Below, in pieces: positions 5,860 to 32,147 of a DNA stretch of 64,000 bases. Each line of letters starts with the position of its first letter. Position 1 is the stretch's first letter. The translations under genes were made by a program, and so were the position numbers. This DNA comes from an uncultured Verrucomicrobiota bacterium. GTDB taxonomy: Bacteria; Verrucomicrobiota; Verrucomicrobiia; Palsa-1439; CAYGDP01. The stretch is taken from assembly GCA_964348665.1 (NCBI GenBank), contig CAYGDP010000001.1:66767-130766 (forward strand), written 5' to 3'. The notes below the pieces were generated by a model. That model ran no database searches and was not told the DNA's origin. It saw only the letters and a list, made by a program, of their open reading frames with translations.

Positions 5860-7167
5860 TCACCGCTCGACCGTGAAGGCGATATCCGTTCCCGGCAAAC
5901 ACACGCCACCTTTTTCCGCTCCACCGTCGTCTTTGCCAACCATGCTCGGATCATCCTCATCGCTGATGCTATAGGTCACAAAACCTCGTGCCAATTTTCT
6001 GTAGCGAATCGGCTGGCCATCGAACGGATCCGTCGGAACTGCCGTTAGAAAACGCGGGACAAGTTCATCTAGTTTTTCGGGCAGCTTGCCATTCGCAAGT
6101 CGATACCGCTCGACGGCGATCCCAGCCTGCGCGGCGCGGGCTGTCGCGGATGCTCGCGCATCGCGCAGAGCCCAAGCGATTGTCATCTCGGCCGCCTTGC
6201 GCCACACATTAACCGCTGGAAGTGATTTCTTTAGCTTCGCTTCCGCCTTCAAAATCTCCTGCAAACTTTTGGGCAACGGCAGTTTACTGGCGGCGATGCA
6301 CTCTTCTATGAAAGTCAGAAAGATGATGTAATGCTCGTTCGAGTATTCGGGCATTGGACTGGAGGTTTTATCATGCGCCGAAATCGCTACCCACATCCCC
6401 TTCGCATACTCTCTTGGCTTGGAGATGATTTCGCAGCGATCGCTCACCAGTATTCGAATGACAGCCTCACGGTCGTCTGCAACCGCGACGACGTTAGCAA
6501 GTCTTTTTAGCTCCTCTTCGGAAACCTGCGTGCGATTCAAAAGCCGCTCAACACTGGAAATCATAATCCAGACACAAGCATTGTGGACGAGGCTCGGGAT
6601 CACTCCCGGCTCGTTGGCTAACGAGCGACTGACTGCCGCCGATGTCTGCACCGATTCCACCGCTGTGGAAGTTAGGCCTTGCTCGGCGAGCACGATGGTT
6701 TCAAGGCTAAGCAGTCTTGCGCAAGCGCGCACAGGCGGAAAGGGAGTGGGAATACCATTTACCATCACCCACGGGTAACGGCACTCGCTCTTTGTCGCCG
6801 CCTGACGCAGCAACGTGAGCGTCTGCCGGTGCGCGGTCAAGTAAGTGAAACACGCCTGCATCATTTCCGGAGGCAACCGCTCCGTGCGCGGCGGTAGTTT
6901 AACCCATCCGTCCACCGGAATGCGTTCCCGCAGTTTTTCGTCTCTCGGCGGAAAACTCGAAAACGCCGCCTTATACAGATCCGCGGCGTTATTTTCGGGT
7001 TTCACCTGCGGATACCACTGCTCCAATTCCGCCATCGTCACGGGATAACCCTCTTTCCGAATCGCATCCAGCTTGGATTGGATTTGCTCGTCAAGCGACT
7101 GGCTGCGGACGGCGCAAGCCGTAACCATCCACAAACACGCTGCGCCTATGAGCCGAACCTGCTGCAT
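5860..7167 (-). CDS. secreted hypothetical protein (signal peptide; C-terminal pseudopilin-like motif)
   Basis: N-terminal signal peptide MQQVRLIGAACLWMVTACAV. The C-terminus VPTDPFDGQPIRYRK...GGVCLPGTDIAF resembles the GspG-type pseudopilin C-terminal motif. Confidence 0.45.
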   Translation of the reverse strand: MQQVRLIGAACLWMVTACAVRSQSLDEQIQSKLDAIRKEGYPVTMAELEQWYPQVKPENNAADLYKAAFSSFPPRDEKLRERIPVDGWVKLPPRTERLPPEMMQACFTYLTAHRQTLTLLRQAATKSECRYPWVMVNGIPTPFPPVRACARLLSLETIVLAEQGLTSTAVESVQTSAAVSRSLANEPGVIPSLVHNACVWIMISSVERLLNRTQVSEEELKRLANVVAVADDREAVIRILVSDRCEIISKPREYAKGMWVAISAHDKTSSPMPEYSNEHYIIFLTFIEECIAASKLPLPKSLQEILKAEAKLKKSLPAVNVWRKAAEMTIAWALRDARASATARAAQAGIAVERYRLANGKLPEKLDELVPRFLTAVPTDPFDGQPIRYRKLARGFVTYSISDEDDPSMVGKDDGGAEKGGVCLPGTDIAFTVER

Positions 7168-7296
7168 GGCTACAGATTACTCCGTTTTTCTGCACGTGCC
7201 AGCGTAAATTCTGGACAAGTATGACCGCTACCACAGACGACGCTTACATCCGGATTTGGTGAGACTCTAACGTTCGCTTGCGATTTCGGGGCGTGC

Positions 7297-7512
7297 GTGT
7301 TAGCTTCGCGTAGAATGAGCAAGAACACAGCGCAATTGATTGTGGCATTTGAGAAGCTGCCGATGGTGGAGAAGCAAATCTTTGTAAAAGAGGTTTTTCG
7401 CCGGCTGCCTCCGATTGATTCGGGTGCGTTGAGCGAGGAGGAGATCGCGGCAGCGGGCGATCAACTCGCTGCGCTGATCGAACAGGAAGAGCATGATTCC
7501 CAAGCGCGGTGA
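7297..7512 (+). CDS. putative antitoxin of a degraded PemK/MazF-type TA pair
   Basis: 71-aa ORF whose 3' end overlaps by 20 nt the start of a PemK-like toxin fragment. Acidic C-terminus. Confidence 0.35.
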   Translation: MLASRRMSKNTAQLIVAFEKLPMVEKQIFVKEVFRRLPPIDSGALSEEEIAAAGDQLAALIEQEEHDSQAR

Positions 7513-7612
7513 GATCTGGCTTTTCGACTGCGGAATGGTCGAGAAAATTCGGCCTGTGCTGATTCTCACCAGAATCATTACCGATGAGTCCTTTCTCCGC
7601 ACATTTGGGTGA
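7493..7612 (+). pseudogene. truncated PemK/MazF-family toxin (39 codons)
   Basis: MIPKRGEIWLFDCGMVEKIRPVLILT matches the PemK/MazF N-terminus (RGEIWL...RPVLIVT) but terminates after 39 codons, against about 110 aa for an intact toxin. Confidence 0.45.
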
Positions 7613-7702: not shown

Positions 7703-8080
7703 ATGTTGCAGTACCGACGGCATGACTATCATCGCTAATGGTTCAGAATTCTCAGCGGTAATCATAGACTACACCACGGCACGCTCGGCGCGGTTTTGCC
7801 CGGAGCGGCGGCGTTTGTTTTGTTGAGGATTTTTTTGCGGGAGCGCAAGTTTTTGGGTGTGGCTTCGACATGTTCACCCGCACCGACGCATACGATTGCG
7901 CGCTCGATGAACTTTCGAATGGGCGCCTTGAGAGAGATATCTTCGTTCCTCTGATTTTCCCAGACGATCATTCCTTCCTAAACTCCCTCGTCCGACAGGA
8001 ATCGCTCGTCGTCGGCGAGATTATTCATTTTCCAGCCCGTTGTTTATTTCCAATCTCCCCCGTGCTAATGTCATCCCCCG

Positions 8081-9097
8081 ATGAAAGACCGCTTATTGGA
8101 TTCGTCGTCCGTTCTCCCGCTGGTTGTAGAACCGGAGCGCGACACAGCAGAAGGGCGTGGACTGCCGGCATTATTGGAGTGGATTGCTTCGGAGAGGGAC
8201 TGGATCGAAACCAAGCTCCTATACCACGGTGGAATACTGCTCCGCGGATTTGCGGTGCGCGACATCGAAGATTTCGAGCGATTCTCGCTCGCCATTTCCC
8301 CGCAGCTTGGCGAATACATCCGGGGCAATTCTCCTCGCAGCAAGATTTCCGGAAAAGTGTACACCTCCACCGAATTTCCCTGTTTTTTTCCGCTACCACT
8401 TCACAACGAATTGTCCTACGTGCCCCGTCCGCCGTCCAAAGTGATGTTTTTTTGCGTTACGCCTCCCGCCATCGGAGGTCGCACCCCGATCGCAGACATG
8501 CGAAAAGTCTACCAACGAATTCGGCCAGAGGTTCGCCAGCGGTTTATCGAGAAACAAGTTCGCTATATCCAGAATGTTCCTGCGCGGGGCAGCGTTCCCT
8601 GGTTGAAAACCTGGCCGTCGATGTTCGAAACCGGAGACAAATTGCGCGTGGAAGAAGCCTGCCGACAACGATCGTTGGATTTTCGCTGGGATGCCAACAA
8701 CACTCTGCATCTAACAAACGTGCGCCCCAGCGTAATGGCGCATCCGAAAACAGGGGAGCAGGTCTGGTTCAATCAAGCGCATATTTTTCACAATTCTTGG
8801 TCGTCAGAATTCTGGCGGCATTACCAGGTTCCCATCGCGATCGGGGCAAAAATCCGTGAGTTGTATCATGCGACGCGGTTTCAACCGGAGGAATACCCGA
8901 CTCACTGTGTCCATGGCGATGGATCTATGATCTTGCCCGAAGATCTCCGGCACATCCGCGATGTGCTCTGGGATACCTCGACCAGTTTTCCATGGCAACA
9001 GGGAGACGTTCTATTGCTCGATAATATTTCAGTCTCGCACGCCCGCAGCCCGTTCCTTGGAAAGCGACGCATCGTCGTCACACTCTCGTATGATTGA
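8081..9097 (+). CDS. TauD/TfdA-family Fe(II)/2-oxoglutarate-dependent dioxygenase
   Basis: Clavaminate-synthase-like layout with an HxE facial-triad motif (PLHNELSY), a distal His and a C-terminal Arg (SHARSPFLGKRRIV). Confidence 0.65.
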   Translation: MKDRLLDSSSVLPLVVEPERDTAEGRGLPALLEWIASERDWIETKLLYHGGILLRGFAVRDIEDFERFSLAISPQLGEYIRGNSPRSKISGKVYTSTEFPCFFPLPLHNELSYVPRPPSKVMFFCVTPPAIGGRTPIADMRKVYQRIRPEVRQRFIEKQVRYIQNVPARGSVPWLKTWPSMFETGDKLRVEEACRQRSLDFRWDANNTLHLTNVRPSVMAHPKTGEQVWFNQAHIFHNSWSSEFWRHYQVPIAIGAKIRELYHATRFQPEEYPTHCVHGDGSMILPEDLRHIRDVLWDTSTSFPWQQGDVLLLDNISVSHARSPFLGKRRIVVTLSYD

Positions 9098-21714: not shown

Positions 21715-23241
21715 TTAGGAGGCGGCGCCGTTGGCGGAAAACGCGGTTAAGGCATCAGAAATTAGAGCGGCGACCCTTTCAGGATGCCAGTCAGGATAGA
21801 AGGCGCGAATCTTTCCTTCGAGGTCAGCGGGGGAGGTGCTGGCCAAAATCATTTGACGCACAGGCGCAAGGCTTCCGCGGAAGGCTCGCGCCAGCTCTGC
21901 CTTACCAGCGCGAGCTATTTCATCGTTCGCCTTCAAAGCTGGCGGTAAAGCTGCGCTCAAAGGCATCATTCCGGCGAACGGAATTTGTGGGACCGGAGCC
22001 TTCCTCTGAAGCGGGAACCCGACACGCTCACTCAAGGTTGGCAGAGCTTCATCGGTAGGCTCGATTCCCGCCGCTGAAATTTTTGCCAATAAATCCCCGG
22101 TCGCCGCTGCCTGTTTGGCAGACTCCGCACCCCAAACAGCCCGGGGCGCACGCCCGATACCCCCATTGATTTTTACCAGTTGATCGAAGAGCTGGTCTTT
22201 CAAAGTCTCGCCAAGCATCTTCCCATCAAACTGGCGAATATCCTCTCGCACGTTCTCCTGTCCAGTCGCGACGCCACTACCAAGTCCGGTACTTTGCGCC
22301 TCACTGGAAAGTGTTTGGCCAACGATCAACTTGGATTTCTCCCTATTACAGATCGAGTGGAATTTCTCGAACGCCTCACCGCTTGATGCGGCCAATGCCT
22401 GCATGATCTCGATTTCGGTTTCGTTCGTTACAACCAAGCCACCGATCCTAGTGGACAAAGCAAACGCACGCTCCAACGTCGTGCGGCTCGCATCATCGGC
22501 CGCGTCATATTTCCCCACCATGAACGGTGCGCCGTACCTTTCCAGAAACCGACCCCACCAATCGCGATCCATCGCCGACAACAGCCACCAAAACAAAATG
22601 GATCGCATCGGTCCACCCCAATTATCCGCCGTAGTGAGCAAATGCCCGCGATGGATGATGTACCGATTGGGATCCGGCTCGTGTTTCGTCGCCAGAATAC
22701 GCCCCTCGGCATCCGTATCACGAATCATCATCACGCCGGATGTGTAATCGAGAAGATCGTAAGGCACTGGCACAAGCTCGCCGATCTCATACTTCACGCC
22801 CTTCATCGTGCTGGGACGAAACACCTTCTCCAAAAGCGCCGATGGCCACAACGTCGAATCCAATAAATGAGAACATGCCTTTATCCAGCCCGACGAATTG
22901 CCCACCAAATTCGTCACCAAACTGCCCGCCTTCACGTCATCATCGTTCTCCTTGTCATGCGGCACGATTGCCATTGGATCACCCAACACCGCAAGCTTAC
23001 GCTTGGCAAATTCCCCCTGGGTGTGGGCATCACTCAAAATTACGTCTCGATACAAAGCGAACAACTGCTGCGTATCGCCCGACTCCGCAGCCCGCAAAAT
23101 TCCGTGCAACCGATCCGCCGTAATCGTCGGCGCCACCGCGCTCAGTTGGTAGCGCTGATTAAAAGTTGTCACCCGCGTCGTCGGCACCTGTGCCGCCGCG
23201 ATCCGCTTCACCGATTCATTCACTTCATTATCTTCAGACAT
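21715..23241 (-). CDS. phage portal protein (Mu gp29-like, DUF935)
   Basis: 508 aa. Sits immediately downstream of the terminase genes. Size and overall character match Mu gp29. Confidence 0.7.
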   Translation of the reverse strand: MSEDNEVNESVKRIAAAQVPTTRVTTFNQRYQLSAVAPTITADRLHGILRAAESGDTQQLFALYRDVILSDAHTQGEFAKRKLAVLGDPMAIVPHDKENDDDVKAGSLVTNLVGNSSGWIKACSHLLDSTLWPSALLEKVFRPSTMKGVKYEIGELVPVPYDLLDYTSGVMMIRDTDAEGRILATKHEPDPNRYIIHRGHLLTTADNWGGPMRSILFWWLLSAMDRDWWGRFLERYGAPFMVGKYDAADDASRTTLERAFALSTRIGGLVVTNETEIEIMQALAASSGEAFEKFHSICNREKSKLIVGQTLSSEAQSTGLGSGVATGQENVREDIRQFDGKMLGETLKDQLFDQLVKINGGIGRAPRAVWGAESAKQAAATGDLLAKISAAGIEPTDEALPTLSERVGFPLQRKAPVPQIPFAGMMPLSAALPPALKANDEIARAGKAELARAFRGSLAPVRQMILASTSPADLEGKIRAFYPDWHPERVAALISDALTAFSANGAAS

Positions 23242-23944
23242 TCAACACCTCCGATGATTCTCGATTTGCCAAAGGATTTTTTACCGACCGGCCCGCCATC
23301 TCTCCGCCGTAGCCCCCCACACGGGCAGCCCGAGCTGACACAGGGCCGCCACCACGCCGTAACGCATGGATACTCAACTTTATTGCCTCAAAACAATCCG
23401 CGTGATTCCCCATCTCATCCACGTCCGCCTCAAACCCACCCTCCACACGCTTCACGCTCCGCAGATCATCCCGCAGCCAAGCCGCTTGCGGCAACAACAC
23501 ACGTCCATCATCCATCAACCCAACGAACTGATTCCCCAAAAACGTCTTCGTCTTCATCTCCTCACCCATGTACTTGACATTCTCGCTGGCGATCACCAGC
23601 TCCACCACAACCTTACCCGCCAATTTACTCCGTAGCGCAGCCGCAAAAAACCGCTCGCTCGTCGCCTCAAGACAAACTCTCCGCACGCGCTTGTTGTCGG
23701 GCAAATCCAGCGCGTACCGCAGAACCTCCTCATAGACCTCGGGCTTGTTTGTCTTGAACCGTACCACGCACCGCACTATGTAATCCCCCCCCACCAACTC
23801 CGTCACCGCGATCGCCGACGGGTTCGACTTTTCCTTCGCCGTCGTCCCGATGTCCCCGCCGATACCGATCAAGCCATTCGTCAATAGACTTTTCCAGCCA
23901 ATCGGCCAAACCTCAGCAGGCGTTATGCGACGATCCGGTTTCAT
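23234..23944 (-). CDS. terminase large subunit, C-terminal nuclease domain (separate ORF)
   Basis: LIGIGGDIGTTAKEKSNPSAIAV matches the TerL nuclease motif (hhGhDxGxxxDxSAhhV). ATGA-coupled to the upstream methyltransferase gene. Confidence 0.6.
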   Translation of the reverse strand: MKPDRRITPAEVWPIGWKSLLTNGLIGIGGDIGTTAKEKSNPSAIAVTELVGGDYIVRCVVRFKTNKPEVYEEVLRYALDLPDNKRVRRVCLEATSERFFAAALRSKLAGKVVVELVIASENVKYMGEEMKTKTFLGNQFVGLMDDGRVLLPQAAWLRDDLRSVKRVEGGFEADVDEMGNHADCFEAIKLSIHALRRGGGPVSARAARVGGYGGEMAGRSVKNPLANRESSEVLNV

Positions 23945-25110
23945 GGATTCAACTCGCGGTACAAAGTGACAAAGGCTTTTGCGGCGACGGCCGGCACGAC
24001 TCCGTTGCCAGCCAATCGCAGTTCATCCACTCGAAAGACACGCCCATGAGCCACGCCACAAAGCGCGGGTTCAAGCGTCGGGTCGTGCGTAAGGACTTTG
24101 CCCCAAGCGTCGAGATCGTTTGGCCGTGGGGGAAATTCAGGCAAGCAACATTCAAAGGTTGTTTGTGGCGACGATGTTGTGATGGGCCTGCATTGTTGCT
24201 CGCATCTTGAACTGTCTCGGTCGGCCAAGTCACTGCATCTCTCGCCAGATACGCATTCCCCGCCTTGCTGCATGGCTTTTGACCGCTGCCCCTCATCGTT
24301 ACATCGTGGGCTTGTGGCGTTGTCCACATCTTTGCCATCCGATCCAGCCCAGCTTCCATCACTCTTTTCCCACCCCGACTCCGAAAGTTTTCCGCTGCCG
24401 GTGACGGCCACATTTTCGCCGCCGTTTGTAGTCCGTCGCCCGCCTTCTCGCTGATCCCTGATCGGTTGTTGTTGCCGTTCACCGATGGCGTCGGCCACTG
24501 AATTGCTTTCCCCAGCAAAGTTGGATTCGATGGGCCATGATGATTGTGCAATCGGCCCCCCGACCCATCCGCCTTGATTGGTGTCGGCCAATTGTCCGAG
24601 GATGAAGACTCGTTTTCGCACATGGCTTGCGCCGACTTCAGCCGCGCTGAATATGCCCCACGCGCGCCGATAACCATCCGCTTCCAAGTCCGCCAGCACT
24701 TTACGGAGGCCGTTGTTGATGTGACCCTCGACATTCTCGAAGAAAACCCAGCGCGGTCGCATCGTTTGATAGCCACGACGGACGGCTGGCCACAAGTTTC
24801 TCTCATCACGGAAGCCGCGCCGCTTTCCCGCGCTGCTGAACGGCTGACACGGATAGCTCGCAATGAAGATGTCCACGATGCCGCGAAAATCTTCTCCTGG
24901 GAAGGTCTTACAATCCGACCAAATAGGCGCTGCGTCCAGGAATCCCTGCTCCATTTTCGCAACCATGTTCGCAACTGCATACGCTTCGATCTCACAGCCA
25001 GCGATAAGCCGCATAGTTGGCAAGACTCGTTTGAGTCCGAGATACATACCGCCGTAGCCGAAGCACCATTCAACGCAATTAAGTTGTTGGGCAGAATCCA
25101 CATGGCTCAC
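23941..25110 (-). CDS. DNA (cytosine-5)-methyltransferase
   Basis: Motif I CFGYGGMYLG (FxGxGG), motif IV SYPCQPFSSAGKRRG, motif VI FENV, motif VIII HVRKRVF. Long Gly/Ser/Asp-rich variable region. C-terminal LAGNGVVPAV (motif X). Confidence 0.8.
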   Translation of the reverse strand: MSHVDSAQQLNCVEWCFGYGGMYLGLKRVLPTMRLIAGCEIEAYAVANMVAKMEQGFLDAAPIWSDCKTFPGEDFRGIVDIFIASYPCQPFSSAGKRRGFRDERNLWPAVRRGYQTMRPRWVFFENVEGHINNGLRKVLADLEADGYRRAWGIFSAAEVGASHVRKRVFILGQLADTNQGGWVGGPIAQSSWPIESNFAGESNSVADAIGERQQQPIRDQREGGRRTTNGGENVAVTGSGKLSESGWEKSDGSWAGSDGKDVDNATSPRCNDEGQRSKAMQQGGECVSGERCSDLADRDSSRCEQQCRPITTSSPQTTFECCLPEFPPRPNDLDAWGKVLTHDPTLEPALCGVAHGRVFRVDELRLAGNGVVPAVAAKAFVTLYRELNP

Positions 25111-25271
25111 GCCGCCTCCTGTTTTTTCAACCCATAGAACCGCTCGACCAAACGCCGGGCATAATCGGACAGCGGCACAAACCCGCGCTCGCTCTCGATC
25201 ACTTGGCCTTGCTTGGCCAACTCGTGAAGCCGATCCCGAATTTGATCGCGGTTCATGCTGTTAATTTTCAT
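25107..25271 (-). CDS. small hypothetical protein (54 aa) in the methyltransferase insertion cassette
   Basis: MKINSMNRDQIRDRLHELAKQGQVIESERGFVPLSDYARRLVERFYGLKKQEAA. ATGA-coupled on both sides. Confidence 0.3.
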   Translation of the reverse strand: MKINSMNRDQIRDRLHELAKQGQVIESERGFVPLSDYARRLVERFYGLKKQEAA

Positions 25272-25471
25272 AGTCTCATGCCATTGATCTCTTCTATGCA
25301 CTTCTGGACTTCCTTCAGGCAACCCATCATCACAGGCGATTTCCCATGAGGTTTGATGACATATCCAACCACAAACCCATTGTCATCACGCACGAATAGC
25401 TCCCAATCAGGCAAGACGGCGAACTCAACCCGATTTGGCTGTTGAATGTTGAGTGTTGGATTCGTTTTCAC
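25268..25471 (-). CDS. small hypothetical protein (67 aa) in the methyltransferase insertion cassette
   Basis: Start overlaps the TerL ATPase-domain stop as ATGA. Confidence 0.3.
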   Translation of the reverse strand: MKTNPTLNIQQPNRVEFAVLPDWELFVRDDNGFVVGYVIKPHGKSPVMMGCLKEVQKCIEEINGMRL

Positions 25472-26418
25472 GCGACGGCGATCTCCTCGGTTACGGCATT
25501 ACACATGCCTTTGTCTTTGCCGCGCTCCATCGCGAGGAAAATGCTTTGCAGCGACAGTGCCGCGACGCCGCCGCGAATAAATCGCAGCCCATAGTTTCTG
25601 TCCCATGCCGCTTTGTCGAACTCACGGGCGCGATGTTCATCGGGGTTGAGTGCATCCCCGCTCTCGCGGTCGTAACAGAGAAGCCCCGCAGCATAGCAGT
25701 CATACACATCGGCGCGATGCACCAATATCCCCGCCTGGCTTCGGTACCAGTTGCCCTCTCGGTTCACGGGAAATTCTTCTTGAGGCGGCACTAACATTTC
25801 CCACGAATAATGCGCATCATCGGGCGGCGGCGTAGTTGCCATCCGCAGGATAAAATTGGGGTTGTTATCAATGAACGGATACACCGCCTCCAAAACATCT
25901 TGTAGTTCCGGGATGCGTCCAAATTCATCCAGAAAAATATCACCTGTCCAACCAACTGCCGTATCGGGATTCGCCGCCACAACTACGCTGCGGCTGTAGC
26001 TGGTGTGCCCGTGAAAAATTTTCGTCTCAAGTTTTTGGTGCTCGAACAGATCGCACACCGCATCAAAATCTAAACCATCCGCGTTGCTCTCAAGCTTCAA
26101 CCCGCTGGCTGAAGCCGCCCCGCGATACCAGTCCAAAAGCTTCATCCACAGACGCGATTCTTTCCGCACGAACTCCACGCCAAGCCGCACGCTCGCGCTC
26201 GCGAAGATGCACTCGTGATCCGGCCGCGACATCATCCGCCGCAAAGCGATCCCCGCCAGCGTCGTTGATTTTCCCGCCTGCCGTCGCCACAACAGACCCG
26301 CACGCCGAAGATCATCGCGCCAAAAAAAAGGCTGTTGATACGCCCGCAACGCGATCAGCGGCGCCGCCTCGATCTGCTCGGCATTTTTTTTCGTTTTCAC
26401 CATCGCGACATTCCTCAA
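25468..26418 (-). CDS. terminase large subunit, N-terminal ATPase domain (separate ORF)
   Basis: Walker A RRQAGKSTT, Walker B IFLDEFGRIP. 316 aa. Confidence 0.7.
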   Translation of the reverse strand: MRNVAMVKTKKNAEQIEAAPLIALRAYQQPFFWRDDLRRAGLLWRRQAGKSTTLAGIALRRMMSRPDHECIFASASVRLGVEFVRKESRLWMKLLDWYRGAASASGLKLESNADGLDFDAVCDLFEHQKLETKIFHGHTSYSRSVVVAANPDTAVGWTGDIFLDEFGRIPELQDVLEAVYPFIDNNPNFILRMATTPPPDDAHYSWEMLVPPQEEFPVNREGNWYRSQAGILVHRADVYDCYAAGLLCYDRESGDALNPDEHRAREFDKAAWDRNYGLRFIRGGVAALSLQSIFLAMERGKDKGMCNAVTEEIAVA

Positions 26419-26420
26419 AT

Positions 26421-26497
26421 TGGTAGCGGGAGTCGGATTTGAACCGACGATCTTTAGGTTATGGGCCTAACGAGATTCCAGGCTTCTCCATCCCGCA
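26421..26497 (-). tRNA. tRNA with CAU anticodon (Met/Ile2-like), phage-encoded
   Basis: Cloverleaf: acceptor 6 bp plus a U1xU72 mismatch, D-stem GAGA/UCUC with GG in the loop, anticodon stem UUAGG/CCUAA, loop CCCAUAA (C33 instead of U33), T-stem GUCGG/CCGAC with loop UUCAAAU, discriminator A and encoded CCA. Confidence 0.6.
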
Positions 26498-26510
26498 AAA
26501 AAATTCGTGT

Positions 26511-27161
26511 TCATCGGCGGCCCTCCGTGGCTGGCTTTTCCCCGAACATCAGCTTGATCAAACGCTCCAGCTTGATCTCGCGGTCCGCGCCGCTCGCCAC
26601 AATCTCCCGCGCCTTCTTGTCGTTAAAGAATTTTTCGAGCAACTCCGCCGTCTCGCGCTGGAACCGTGCTTCCTCGATCGCCAGCTTGCGGCTGGCCTGT
26701 TTGATTTTTTCCAAATCGCCCAAGGCACGCAGAATCGAGGCGTACGCAGCCGGATCTTTGCGCTGAAGCTTCTTGAAGTCCGTCACCGAGAACGAACTCA
26801 GAATATCAACCAGATGCGCCGCCGCCATCGCGCTCCCCGCATCCGACGCCAGATTCGGCAACCCGCTCGACAACGCCTCACGTGAAAGCTCGATGATCCG
26901 CTCCGTCACCTCACGCTTACTCAACCAATCCTGATAGCCGTCTTTCCGCCACTTCGATAGATTCTGGTAGCTGATCTTCTGACCGTCGAACTCCTCGCGC
27001 ATCACGCGCTTTACATCCGGCTGATCGTTGAGCCATTCGAGTATCCGGCGATCCGATTGGCCGTCGCGAATCCGGCGATTGATTTCAGACCGGGTGCTAT
27101 GCGGCAGCCGCCCAATCTTACCGCGGCGCACGCGGCTCTGTAGTGCGAGTCGAGTCGTCAT
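26511..27161 (-). CDS. terminase small subunit-like (Mu gp27-like, DUF3486)
   Basis: RRGKIGRLPHSTRSEINRRIRDGQSDRRILEWLN resembles the Mu gp27 N-terminus (RRSKIDLLPPELR...DG.LTQDEIL..IN). Sits immediately upstream of TerL. Confidence 0.5.
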   Translation of the reverse strand: MTTRLALQSRVRRGKIGRLPHSTRSEINRRIRDGQSDRRILEWLNDQPDVKRVMREEFDGQKISYQNLSKWRKDGYQDWLSKREVTERIIELSREALSSGLPNLASDAGSAMAAAHLVDILSSFSVTDFKKLQRKDPAAYASILRALGDLEKIKQASRKLAIEEARFQRETAELLEKFFNDKKAREIVASGADREIKLERLIKLMFGEKPATEGRR

Positions 27162-29382: not shown

Positions 29383-30231
29383 TCATGGTTTGGCCGACGC
29401 GGTTTTGTGCCGAAGCCAAAGAAAAATAAGAAAACCACCGACAGCGATTATGTTTAGAGCAATGGTTGTCCACCAGAAAACACTTTCCCTCCGCTGCTTG
29501 GCGCGCTTCTCTTCCAGTATGGGATAAAATGCGCTGAGACCGCTGTCATAGAACTCCGCCCGTCCAACTTCCTGAATTTTTTTCGCCCGCTTTATCGCCA
29601 CCCGCACTGCCTCACGGATACGTTCCGACTGTGTATTGTCAGCATAGATTTTTTGTAATGCCTCGACAGCCCGTGGCTGGGCGGAATCGCCTACGGCACG
29701 AATTGCACCTACAAGAACATCCTCCCGCTCTATTTTATGACCGGATGCATTCCGATGTGGGAATGTTGTGCCTTTGACTCTATAGGTTTCTGGCTCAATG
29801 GTCGCCAGCAAATAGGTTAATGCTTTTTCGCTGCCCTTGCCAGCGATATTCACTATTGCGTTTGAGCAGCCTGGGCAAGCCCAGCGGCCCGGTTCGGTCC
29901 CTTGGCGCTCAAGTCGCTCAATGATGGGTTTAACCGCCCGCTCATCGCCGATAATACCCAGAACTTCAATCACATTGTCCCACCATTGTTCCTCTTTTGG
30001 ATCATTTAGCATTTCCAGCAGCGTCGGTACGACACTCGAGTCAAGTTTTGTCGTTTCCCCGTAGTTAACCCCATGGTGCATCGAGGCAATGGGGGGATTG
30101 CGTACGAAGTCTTTTATGTCCCGCCCTTGCCCCAAGCTCGTAGAAAACGAGACAGCCGTTAATCCCAAAATGGACACCAACCGGCAAAGGTTTGAGACTC
30201 GCTTTTCAGTTTTCATGTTGCCATACCTCAC
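29383..30231 (-). CDS. secreted/membrane-anchored HEAT-repeat protein
   Basis: Signal peptide, PBS-lyase/HEAT-like repeats (PTLLEMLNDP...AVKPIIERL...AVEALQKIY) and a C-terminal TM. Lower-GC segment. Confidence 0.45.
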   Translation of the reverse strand: MRYGNMKTEKRVSNLCRLVSILGLTAVSFSTSLGQGRDIKDFVRNPPIASMHHGVNYGETTKLDSSVVPTLLEMLNDPKEEQWWDNVIEVLGIIGDERAVKPIIERLERQGTEPGRWACPGCSNAIVNIAGKGSEKALTYLLATIEPETYRVKGTTFPHRNASGHKIEREDVLVGAIRAVGDSAQPRAVEALQKIYADNTQSERIREAVRVAIKRAKKIQEVGRAEFYDSGLSAFYPILEEKRAKQRRESVFWWTTIALNIIAVGGFLIFLWLRHKTASAKP

Positions 30232-32147
30232 TTCATTCTGAACTTATCACACTCGCTTTGATCCAGTGTGTTCCGTCCCGGCCCGCCTTCGAACATAATT
30301 CTGTGAGTCGGTTTTCCAGAGGCAGAACCGTAATGGGGAAGCCCCTTTTGGTGTCCAAACTCATGCGCCCAATCCGAGGGTGGAGCATTTTGGTCCAGAA
30401 TACTCTGTTTCGCCAAAGTGCAACCATCAATTGCGGGATCGTATTGAAGACCGCACGCCTGTATATCTGTAACAATCATGATATTTGCTTTGCTGGCTAG
30501 GAAGACATCTGCTTGTTCATTTACCCTCTTGTCTGCATTTATGTCTTTGCCATCAACGATTTGCGGGGGAAAATCGCCGACGATGTCATGCCCGTCATTC
30601 AACTCCCCGAATGTTCCGACACTTCCCTTGAGCTTGAGCACGACGCAGCAACGCACATCGTCCTCAATGTCCTTGCGTTTCAGTAGGAGTGTTGCCCTCG
30701 CAAACTTGTCAATGACGTAGTTATTTAATATCTTTTGGTCATTGTTGAACCCGATCTGGAAAGACTTTTTATGAATGGCGACGGTGACTTCATGGGTAAC
30801 CACCTCCACCGCCTCAAACTCGCTGGTCGAAACACCTTGCTCAGTTCCATCGAGCCGCAGGTTGCCATCATCCGCCCAGAAAGTTACCTTATACGTTCCC
30901 TTAACCGGCAACTGTGTTTTGAAGGTCACTCCCTTGCCGCTCTTCACGGGCACGATCGTCACAATGGTCTGGCCGCCCATGGTCTTGGTCTCTTTCCGCT
31001 CCAGTTTCCAAGCCACCCCCGGTGGATTGTCCACTTCCGGGTCGGTGGATACGCGAGCACGGATGGAATCCCCGACGCAGAAATTCTCCGGATCGGAAGA
31101 ATAGATCTCGTCGTCTTCGCCCACAGCTTTCACCTCTGGCTCGACGAGCTTGAAAACCGCGAGATTCACGCCATCTTCACGGTGGGTCGTTGCTTCCTGT
31201 GCGAAGGGAACCGAAATGGCCGGTCTCAAAATCTGCATCGTCAAATTTCCCGTACCCCCGCTGATCCCTTCCACATAGACGGGGTTGGGCAAGTGACCTC
31301 GGCCAACCTCGAACGTTTGGTTTGTAATGTCATTCCCACCAACGGCTGCGTCCCAGACACGGATATTACCCAGCGCACGCAGACGGATCTGCCATGGTCC
31401 CTCGAAATCCACCGTCCTGAGCACCGGCAGAGCGGCCCCATAATCAATATACTGATAACTCGATGGAAATTGAGTCGGCAAAGTCATCTTCGCGGCAGCT
31501 CGCAGACCCACGCCCAAGAGCTTGCCGGGGCCATCCTCCACCAGATCATCAGTGGCCGGATCCAAAACCCCGTCATTGTTGGAGTCGGTATCCAGACTGA
31601 CCACGAATACCTCCAATGATGCGCTGCTCACCGAGTTGCTGGCCGTCACCGTGATGGTTTGGCCCGGCTCGGCGTTTGGAAAGGCAATGACAGCGTTGCC
31701 TATAATCTGGAGGGAACAGTCAGGCTCGACGGGAATAGGCGGTGGAAGATGTGACCAAACAACGGGTTCATGGTAGCTAACAGAAAGAAACTGATTGATC
31801 GCGTTGAAAGCGCCAGATCCGCCGTGCGGCGTAATAAAAACGGGGTTTATCGTGGAGGGAGTTGGGATGAAATATTCCCAGATGCCGATGATTGGCGGCC
31901 CCGGACAGGTCGCCTCAGCCGCGGCTGCCGTTTCGGATGGCGGCGGGTCTACGCCGGGGACGGTGGTCGCACCACCGCAGCAAATCCCGCTGCTGGGACT
32001 GGTACCAATACTGATCAACGTCGCCGCCATCACAACGGCACAAAGTAACACCACCAACACTTTTGCGCTAGTCCTGCCGCCTTGGTTATTGGTTTGCATG
32101 TATTCCCTCCTTGTGGGGCAACTATCTAGCCACATTGCGACCACCAT
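30228..32147 (-). CDS. secreted zinc-metalloprotease-like protein (HEFGH motif)
   Basis: Signal peptide. Long beta-rich N-terminal region. C-terminal HExxH (AHEFGHQKGLPH). ATGA-coupled to the downstream HEAT-repeat gene. Confidence 0.5.
   Translation of the reverse strand: MVVAMWLDSCPTRREYMQTNNQGGRTSAKVLVVLLCAVVMAATLISIGTSPSSGICCGGATTVPGVDPPPSETAAAAEATCPGPPIIGIWEYFIPTPSTINPVFITPHGGSGAFNAINQFLSVSYHEPVVWSHLPPPIPVEPDCSLQIIGNAVIAFPNAEPGQTITVTASNSVSSASLEVFVVSLDTDSNNDGVLDPATDDLVEDGPGKLLGVGLRAAAKMTLPTQFPSSYQYIDYGAALPVLRTVDFEGPWQIRLRALGNIRVWDAAVGGNDITNQTFEVGRGHLPNPVYVEGISGGTGNLTMQILRPAISVPFAQEATTHREDGVNLAVFKLVEPEVKAVGEDDEIYSSDPENFCVGDSIRARVSTDPEVDNPPGVAWKLERKETKTMGGQTIVTIVPVKSGKGVTFKTQLPVKGTYKVTFWADDGNLRLDGTEQGVSTSEFEAVEVVTHEVTVAIHKKSFQIGFNNDQKILNNYVIDKFARATLLLKRKDIEDDVRCCVVLKLKGSVGTFGELNDGHDIVGDFPPQIVDGKDINADKRVNEQADVFLASKANIMIVTDIQACGLQYDPAIDGCTLAKQSILDQNAPPSDWAHEFGHQKGLPHYGSASGKPTHRIMFEGGPGRNTLDQSECDKFRMK

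Follow-up and report, generated by a model that had tools for sequence, protein, structure and literature searches.

A probable two-gene large terminase with a cargo slot at its junction in a clade of Mu-like prophages of Verrucomicrobiota and Kiritimatiellia

The window analysed here is a stretch of 64,000 nucleotides from an uncultured Verrucomicrobiota bacterium (GenBank assembly GCA_964348665.1, contig CAYGDP010000001.1, positions 66,767 to 130,766). It holds a Mu-like prophage that very probably belongs to a clade in which the large terminase subunit (TerL) is made as two polypeptides, an ATPase of about 300 amino acids (aa) and an RNase H-like nuclease of about 235 aa, with the junction between the two genes acting as a cargo slot. 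The genes concerned lie in a tightly packed packaging block on the minus strand that runs from 29.2 down to 21.7 kb of the window. A gene for a small terminase subunit (TerS) stands at its head and a Mu-type portal gene at its end, and the features are the following:

29.2-21.7 kb, at the start of the packaging block, minus strand: genes for small membrane proteins, one of them holin-like
26511..27161, minus strand: TerS-like gene heading the packaging block, directly 5′ of the TerL ATPase gene (phrog_426 'terminase small subunit', 1.5e-5)
26421..26497, minus strand: tRNA-Met with anticodon CAT and an encoded CCA end, between the TerS and ATPase open reading frames (ORFs) (ARAGORN; Rfam RF00005, 54.1 bits)
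25468..26403, minus strand: gene of the predicted TerL ATPase subunit, 311 aa from ATG (Walker motifs, phrog_2, structural model)
25468..25471, minus strand: GTGA stop/start overlap at the ATPase stop, which starts cassette ORF 1 (sequence)
25268..25471, minus strand: cassette ORF 1, 67 aa (ORF list; gene call in locus L001)
25107..25271, minus strand: cassette ORF 2, 54 aa from the ATG at 25271, coupled by ATGA (ORF list; gene call)
23941..25110, minus strand: C5 cytosine DNA methyltransferase, frame A, 389 aa (PF00145, phrog_363)
23949..25103, minus strand: +1-frame ORF, 384 aa, wholly overlapping the methyltransferase gene and a candidate beta subunit (phrog_1008 'DNA methyltransferase', 1.5e-24)
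23234..23944, minus strand: gene of the predicted TerL nuclease subunit, 236 aa, coupled by ATGA to the methyltransferase stop (Terminase_6C, structural model)
21715..23241, minus strand: Mu-type portal gene, the outermost prophage gene on this side (Portal_Mu PF06074, 1.7e-61; phrog_113, 3.3e-61)

A first-pass annotation of the window had read this region as a TerL divided into ATPase and nuclease ORFs around a methyltransferase cassette. All the ORFs it named are present on the minus strand where it placed them, and its description of every junction as overlap-coupled holds. From the ATPase to the nuclease gene the 4-nt NTGA overlaps read GTGA, ATGA, GTGA and ATGA, and the nuclease and portal genes then overlap by 8 nt. 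The start of the ATPase gene had been set at a TTG (26418) that lies 3 nt past the tRNA and gives 316 aa. More likely, translation begins at the ATG at 26403, downstream of a GAGGAA Shine-Dalgarno sequence, and yields a product of 311 aa identical to a database protein (P0001).

The ATPase ORF carries the Walker A (RRQAGKSTT) and Walker B (IFLDEFG) motifs that had been noted before, as well as an ATTPPP coupling-type motif. It matches phrog_2 'terminase large subunit' at 1.3e-9. The Pfam family Terminase_6N reaches 16.1 bits (E 0.009), under its curated 22-bit cut-off, and a profile search of PDB chains returned only T4 gp17, weakly (E 0.006). Sequence searches of the PDB were nearly empty for both halves, and fold comparison was therefore used instead. 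An AlphaFold2 (AF2) model of the ATPase half, built with a homologue alignment as input, has a predicted local distance difference test (pLDDT) score of 77. Its top Foldseek matches in the PDB are all TerL ATPase domains, namely T4 gp17 (2o0h, 9.7e-8), P74-26 (4znj, 1.5e-7) and D6E. Residues K45, S46, D159, E160 and T191 are invariant in an alignment of 23 homologues (A1). Judged by its motifs and its predicted fold, the product is a TerL ATPase domain.

The nuclease identity proposed for the ORF at 23234..23944 is borne out by Pfam Terminase_6C (PF17289), which matches it above the cut-off (E 3.4e-5; 24.3 bits against 22.6) over profile positions 3-154 of 155. No PDB chain was matched by this half in sequence or profile searches. 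Its AF2 model, also made from a homologue alignment, has a pLDDT of 82, and the top fold matches are the TerL nucleases of G20c (5m1f, 2.8e-6), D6E, human cytomegalovirus (UL89), T4 and RB49 (gp17) and SPP1 (G2P). Invariant positions in the nuclease alignment A2 (24 homologues) are D31, E97, E121, H181 and D183; the acidic ones, D31, E97, E121 and D183, would be those from which the metal ligands are drawn. Profile match and model agree in making this product an RNase H-like TerL nuclease domain. An Avs3-phage terminase structure was also among the fold matches of the nuclease model.

The two genes do not amount to a canonical single-chain TerL, as a stop codon follows the ATPase domain and a separate nuclease start lies 1.5 kb downstream. 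Alignment with fused relatives confirms that the halves are complementary parts of one TerL. They meet in the linker between the domains without loss of residues, and the concatenated halves of split forms have about 10 extra residues there. How general the split is was judged from 139 related loci taken from GTDB genomes and IMG/VR, the search for uninterrupted relatives that the first-pass annotation had called for. The 139 fetched loci comprise 70 split and 69 fused, and the fused ones fall mostly in a sister clade. Among the best 120 of 601 homologues of the ATPase half all are about 300 aa long save one fused protein of 527 aa. Homologues of the nuclease half stand alone in 45 of 45 cases, at about 235 aa. 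An exhaustive search turns up both stand-alone and fused forms.

Neighbour-joining of the ATPase domain groups the split loci in a single clade, so that a lineage naturally endowed with a two-piece terminase, the second of two options offered earlier, is the one supported. Only three fused loci (L003, L098 and L101) are nested in this clade, and the remaining fused loci form its sister group, with 38-47% identity. The three nested cases are explained most simply as apparent secondary re-fusions. L003 is fused at 6001-7584 and lacks about 18 junction residues; in L098 (7974-9623) and L101 (7998-9656) the frame continues unbroken across the former junction. The nearest relative of the window locus is L002/L004 (64-65% identity), where the ATPase and nuclease ORFs share 4 nt and no insert lies between them, and about 30 other loci are likewise split without an insert; about half of the split loci overlap as ATGA or GTGA in this way. 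The split thus predates the cassette, which occupies a junction between genes. That split appears to be ancestral to the clade and lies in a flexible inter-domain linker, and the catalytic residues are kept in both halves.

Hosts of the split clade belong to the Verrucomicrobiota (Chthoniobacterales, Opitutales and Verrucomicrobiales) and Kiritimatiellia. The split also occurs in genome records not labelled as metagenome-assembled genomes (MAGs), including Geminisphaera colitermitum TAV2 with three prophages, Haloferula luteola and a Horticoccus sp., and it is therefore not an assembly artefact. Many members are IMG/VR viral contigs of 30-41 kb. A tblastn search of INPHARED for an isolate phage with the split found none in the clade. 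The nuclease half had no match there, and the ATPase half found two Mu-like phages, Alteromonadaceae phage B23 and Pasteurella phage AFS-2018a, the nearest annotated ones, which have a normal TerL at about 27% identity. For both halves, most of the listed proteins lack a Pfam domain, and the few with a name bear that of 'hypothetical protein'.

Three loci of other kinds deserve mention. L009 (1022-8829, on a Chthoniobacteraceae MAG contig) was set aside. There, the ATPase is parted from a nuclease match at the contig end by 7.8 kb of tail-like genes, a tape-measure-like ORF among them, an arrangement that may reflect a rearrangement, two phages or a misassembly. In L069 and L116, which belong to the fused sister clade, the ATPase and nuclease parts are in different frames and overlap by 142-421 nt, a pattern more like frameshift mutation or sequencing error than like the split of the clade.

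Where the two genes abut, the junction itself is conserved. It is ATGA or GTGA in 28 of 32 abutting loci, with a GGAGG upstream inside conserved TEE(I/V) codons. In the window the GTGA follows TEEIAVA, and GAGGAG lies just 5′ of it, inside the conserved TEEI codons. An NTGA overlap with an upstream GGAGG is typical of translationally coupled genes. The remaining four abutting loci differ in frame or have a spacer, such as L038 with a same-frame TAA-ATG, and L018 and L019 with spacers of 36-40 nt. Relative to the ATPase ORF, the nuclease ORF of abutting loci is mostly in frame -1. By eye, no slippery heptamer was noticed at these junctions, although no formal scan was made. Rfam reported no intron in the whole window at gathering thresholds, and at E values up to 1 over 23100-26600 it gave only the tRNA and a sub-threshold chance match to a small RNA. 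An in-frame segment of intein size is absent at the junction in the alignment with fused relatives. No support was found for the split being undone during expression.

The same junction carries inserts of 0.1-2.1 kb in 30 loci. In 26 of these the first inserted ORF starts on an NTGA that overlaps the ATPase stop, and the window obeys this rule, the 67-aa ORF starting on GTGA and an ATGA re-coupling the nuclease ORF to the methyltransferase stop. Three unrelated families of DNA methyltransferase occur in this position: C5 enzymes (L020/L093, L021 and L024), N6_N4 enzymes (L026 and L073) and a D12, Dam-type enzyme (L030, with related cargo in L029). Among the further cargo are a DUF6527 protein, a protein like N4 gp49, and numerous ORFs of 56-220 aa that have no annotation. 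Inserts are scattered within the split clade and differ in content. Related cargo recurs in different TerL sub-lineages, with 61% identity between L026 and L073 and 67% between L020 and L024, and this suggests that cargo is exchanged by recombination in the conserved flanks. On these comparisons the junction acts as a defined cargo slot that has repeatedly been given extra genes.

Of the small cassette genes in the window, ORF 1 (67 aa) has no Pfam or PHROG match and no relative among the fetched loci; ORF 2 (54 aa) likewise has no Pfam or PHROG family and no relative among those loci, its one weak match being to a SelB winged helix (0.029). The cassette ends show an imperfect repeat, GTGAAAACGAATCC against ATGAAACCGGATCG, with 10 of 14 positions matching and GAATCC at both. 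Considered as a target-site duplication, it was rejected as short and compatible with chance. It is plausible that the methyltransferase acts on DNA destined for packaging, a view strengthened by the presence of three unrelated methyltransferase families at the same junction in relatives.

The methyltransferase gene of the window has two open frames. The first-pass annotation had credited it with a full C5 enzyme. This stands for motifs I-VIII and X, which are in frame A, and fails for the remainder, as a motif IX-like segment and a series of WPTP repeats are read from the +1 frame (frame B). Frame A contains FGYGG, PCQ, ENVEG, RKRVF and, as motif X, GNGVVP. PF00145 matches its residues 11-212 at 1.4e-29, ending at profile position 196 of 324, and phrog_363 matches residues 4-381 at 2e-50. 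Residues ~185-330, between the parts with motif VIII and motif X, are of low complexity, and a target-recognition domain with motif IX does not occur between motifs VIII and X of this chain. The +1 frame reads NWPTP, QWPTPSV, MWPSPAA, MWTTPQAHD and TWPTE, followed by the motif IX-like RLNPRFVAWLMG; we read its segment LNPRFVAWLMG (LNPxFVxWLMG) as a probable motif IX.

This layout is found again in phage C75C1, L143 and L144, and the two-frame loci are L142 (2994-4436), L143 (5001-6053), L144 (5001-6407) and L145-L224. By tblastn frame assignment the +1 ORF is kept in 76 of 76 complete homologous loci of IMG/VR, a set picked by frame-B peptide patterns and hence with some ascertainment bias. 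In 64 of the 76 it spans 90% or more of frame A, and the median count of stops in the third frame is 19. When synonymous codons were shuffled in the N-terminal catalytic region of 81 loci, 227 stops were expected in the +1 frame and 6 are observed; for the +2 frame the figures are 570 and 602. Frame-B products form 460 database clusters, which are without a Pfam domain. In the source labels for the window gene the frame-B product is NCBI-only and the ENA call is the 389-aa frame A, which suggests that NCBI and ENA chose different frames. Expression of the gene by two frameshifts, from A to B and back to A, was considered and dismissed because it would not account for both frames being open gene-wide in all homologues.

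A precedent is M.EcoHK31I, whose alpha subunit holds motifs I-VIII together with X and whose beta subunit, with motif IX, comes from a different reading frame within the alpha gene (PMC2836561). Compared by this description, the window gene has the same layout of motifs over two frames. It differs in that its second frame stays open along the full gene (384 against 389 codons) and holds the WPTP repeats too, whereas the target-recognition domain of M.EcoHK31I is assigned to alpha. The window methyltransferase probably needs both products, the alpha chain for catalysis and the beta chain for target recognition and motif IX. The spread of the two-frame layout suggests that heterodimeric methyltransferases of this type are common in phages.

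From these elements a course of events can be proposed. Leaving the ATPase gene, ribosomes would traverse the cassette and reach the nuclease and portal genes by a relay of termination and re-initiation over the overlaps, and the 4-nt overlaps would tie synthesis of the nuclease and the portal to that of the ATPase. The two subunits would associate non-covalently into a terminase equivalent to a single-chain TerL, and this complex would dock on the portal, cut the DNA at initiation and at headful termination, and translocate it. The methyltransferase, made late with the packaging proteins, would methylate progeny DNA before packaging and so protect it against restriction in the next host.

Single-chain TerL proteins, of the Mu gp28 type and those of T4 (gp17), P74-26, G20c and D6E, have the same domains, order, motifs and folds as the two halves, and the same place between TerS and a Mu-type portal. 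The difference is that the genes here are separate, and by inference the polypeptides too, with a junction that tolerates up to 2.1 kb of foreign genes. In phi29, gp16 is a packaging ATPase that does not need a covalently attached active nuclease; a vestigial nuclease fold remains in the same chain, and phi29 needs no cutting. In the present system, by contrast, the nuclease keeps conserved acidic residues and has a gene of its own, which is co-translated. Mu mom and P1 dam are late phage DNA-modification genes whose action protects progeny DNA before packaging. The window resembles them in placing a modifying enzyme with late functions, here to judge from gene position, and differs in enzyme family and in location, between two terminase genes. 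TerL genes in pieces with coding DNA between them are known as intron- or intein-interrupted genes in Jug and crAss-like phages and in cyanophage Mic1 (PMC12880540; PMC7156551). They share with the window a TerL coding sequence in genomic pieces separated by other coding DNA. Splicing there restores one TerL, whereas the window shows no intron or intein signal, each piece of its TerL has its own start and the upstream piece its own stop, and the split, at the domain boundary, is conserved even without an insert. A literature search for a natural two-gene, non-intron TerL gave intron, intein and structural papers; its coverage was incomplete, so this is not proof of novelty. A keyword search of a 2024 review of the packaging machinery found no mention of a two-gene TerL.

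Other explanations differ in how the split arose or in whether it persists in the protein. Invasion of a single-chain TerL gene by a mobile methyltransferase cassette that left two functional halves, the first option offered earlier, would account for a cassette exactly between the ATPase and nuclease domains and for the existence of relatives with fused TerL, and the weak imperfect repeat at the cassette ends could be its trace. It is extremely improbable, however, and an insertion that broke an intact gene is contradicted by the closest relative and the roughly 30 other loci that are split, empty and joined by the same NTGA. The split marks one clade inside which the inserts are scattered and varied, and the repeat is short enough for chance. 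The halves might instead be rejoined into one TerL by a group I or II intron, a split intein or programmed ribosomal frameshifting. TerL genes split by introns or carrying inteins are on record (PMC12880540; PMC7156551), and the usual -1 frame of an abutting nuclease ORF would suit frameshifting. Such rejoining has next to no likelihood in view of the intron search over 23100-26600, negative at E values up to 1, the own start codon of each half and the own stop of the ATPase, and the fact that the DNA between them consists of ordinary coupled ORFs. The junction alignment, moreover, has no intein-sized segment, no slippery heptanucleotide was noticed by eye (no formal scan being made), the frames at the junction vary (same-frame in L038, spacers in L018 and L019), and inserts of 0.1-2.1 kb are not bridgeable by frameshifting.

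It is also very unlikely that the split is a product of decay, with defective prophages harbouring a broken terminase gene and a cassette accumulated in a pseudogene. Degraded copies do exist, such as L002 with its split portal, and all members are prophages or metagenomic contigs, no isolate phage being known in INPHARED. Decay would not, however, conserve the break point, the start/stop overlap and the Shine-Dalgarno sequence at 47-65% identity, or keep Walker A/B and the nuclease acidic residues invariant. The window prophage also retains matches to MuA, MuB, portal, gp30/F-like, protease, major head and tape-measure proteins, and many members are viral contigs of 30-41 kb. More serious, if still unlikely, is a division of labour in which the portal-bound ring consists of the ATPase subunit alone, as in phi29, with the nuclease cutting in trans only at initiation and headful termination. 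Separate genes with variable spacing imply that covalent linkage is dispensable, and the phi29 gp16 motor works with a merely vestigial nuclease-like domain. Against this, tight coupling is kept even through inserts, which suggests matched production and a stable complex, and the C-terminal domain or tail of studied TerLs contacts the portal. Action in trans is the weaker alternative to a non-covalent two-subunit terminase. The reading of two polypeptides has its own weak points: the two-subunit terminase is known here from genes and from models of single halves; the neighbour-joining tree is without support values, which makes the single origin and the three re-fusions provisional; several prophages in the set look degraded, and some copies may not be functional; and the protective role of the methyltransferase is drawn from position and recurrence.

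If the two-polypeptide reading is true, it would be natural proof that the covalent hinge between the TerL domains is dispensable. Some translocation models hold that hinge to be mechanically essential, and packaging models differ on the role of the nuclease domain and hinge in force generation. Domains on separate proteins would offer a direct test of such models, with the three apparent natural re-fusions as comparators. Tentatively, and with some doubt, this large, uncultured transposable-phage clade of Verrucomicrobiota and Kiritimatiellia may package its DNA with a truly heteromeric TerL. The split may have been favoured as a translationally coupled slot for late-expressed cargo, above all DNA methyltransferases, and the recurrence of such enzymes points to selection for making anti-restriction enzymes together with packaging proteins. 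More speculatively, it could blunt host sensors of an intact two-domain TerL, such as the Avs-type STAND NTPases. TerL is a standard phylogenetic and detection marker for tailed phages. Annotation and virus discovery are affected, as the split halves are mostly without a Pfam domain, and the fully overlapping methyltransferase frames affect gene calling, NCBI and ENA differing on the window gene.

The remaining genes of the prophage lie at 32.8-59 kb of the window and comprise a repressor and ParB-like, MuA- and MuB-like, gp30/F-like, protease, major head and tape-measure genes. Matches to Mu-like genes are phrog_310 (transposase, 8.5e-11), phrog_296 (transposition protein, 2e-25) and phrog_220 (1.6e-40). 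From the Mu-type portal and the MuA-, MuB- and gp30/F-like matches the element is classed as a Mu-like transposable prophage, an assignment made on predicted proteins. Downstream of the portal gene lie non-phage genes. Between 21500 and 29500, promoter- and terminator-like sites are no more frequent than expected from shuffled sequence. The layout over 21715-59000 is unusual for a Mu-like phage: lysis genes, TerS, TerL and portal are on a leftward arm with the portal terminal, and the transposase, head and tail genes of the same prophage run rightward.

Several minor observations concern the ends and the extra genes of these elements. Many of the split-clade viral contigs of 30-41 kb (L079-L103) end about 3-4.5 kb after the ATPase gene start, unlike the fused sister clade, in which the sequence carries on downstream. 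In L002 the Mu-type portal (7831-9077) is called as two ORFs of 182 and 263 aa with host genes directly after it, and this copy is probably a decaying prophage. Host tRNA genes lie about 200 bp past the portal in L015 (12087-12176, Ser), L024 (12792-12866, Gly) and L086 (9306-9379, Glu). Their presence at the prophage end in three relatives is unexpected, being out of keeping with randomly transposing Mu-like phages. A tRNA between TerS and the ATPase gene, as in the window, was found in none of 54 related loci. Inspected by eye, the tRNA-Met at 26421-26497 has a U1-U72 mismatch atop the acceptor stem and a C instead of a U before the anticodon. A 282-aa HEAT-repeat-like ORF and a 639-aa ORF, neither with a PHROG match, lie on the minus strand at 29383-32147, between the packaging arm and the repressor, and may be prophage cargo.

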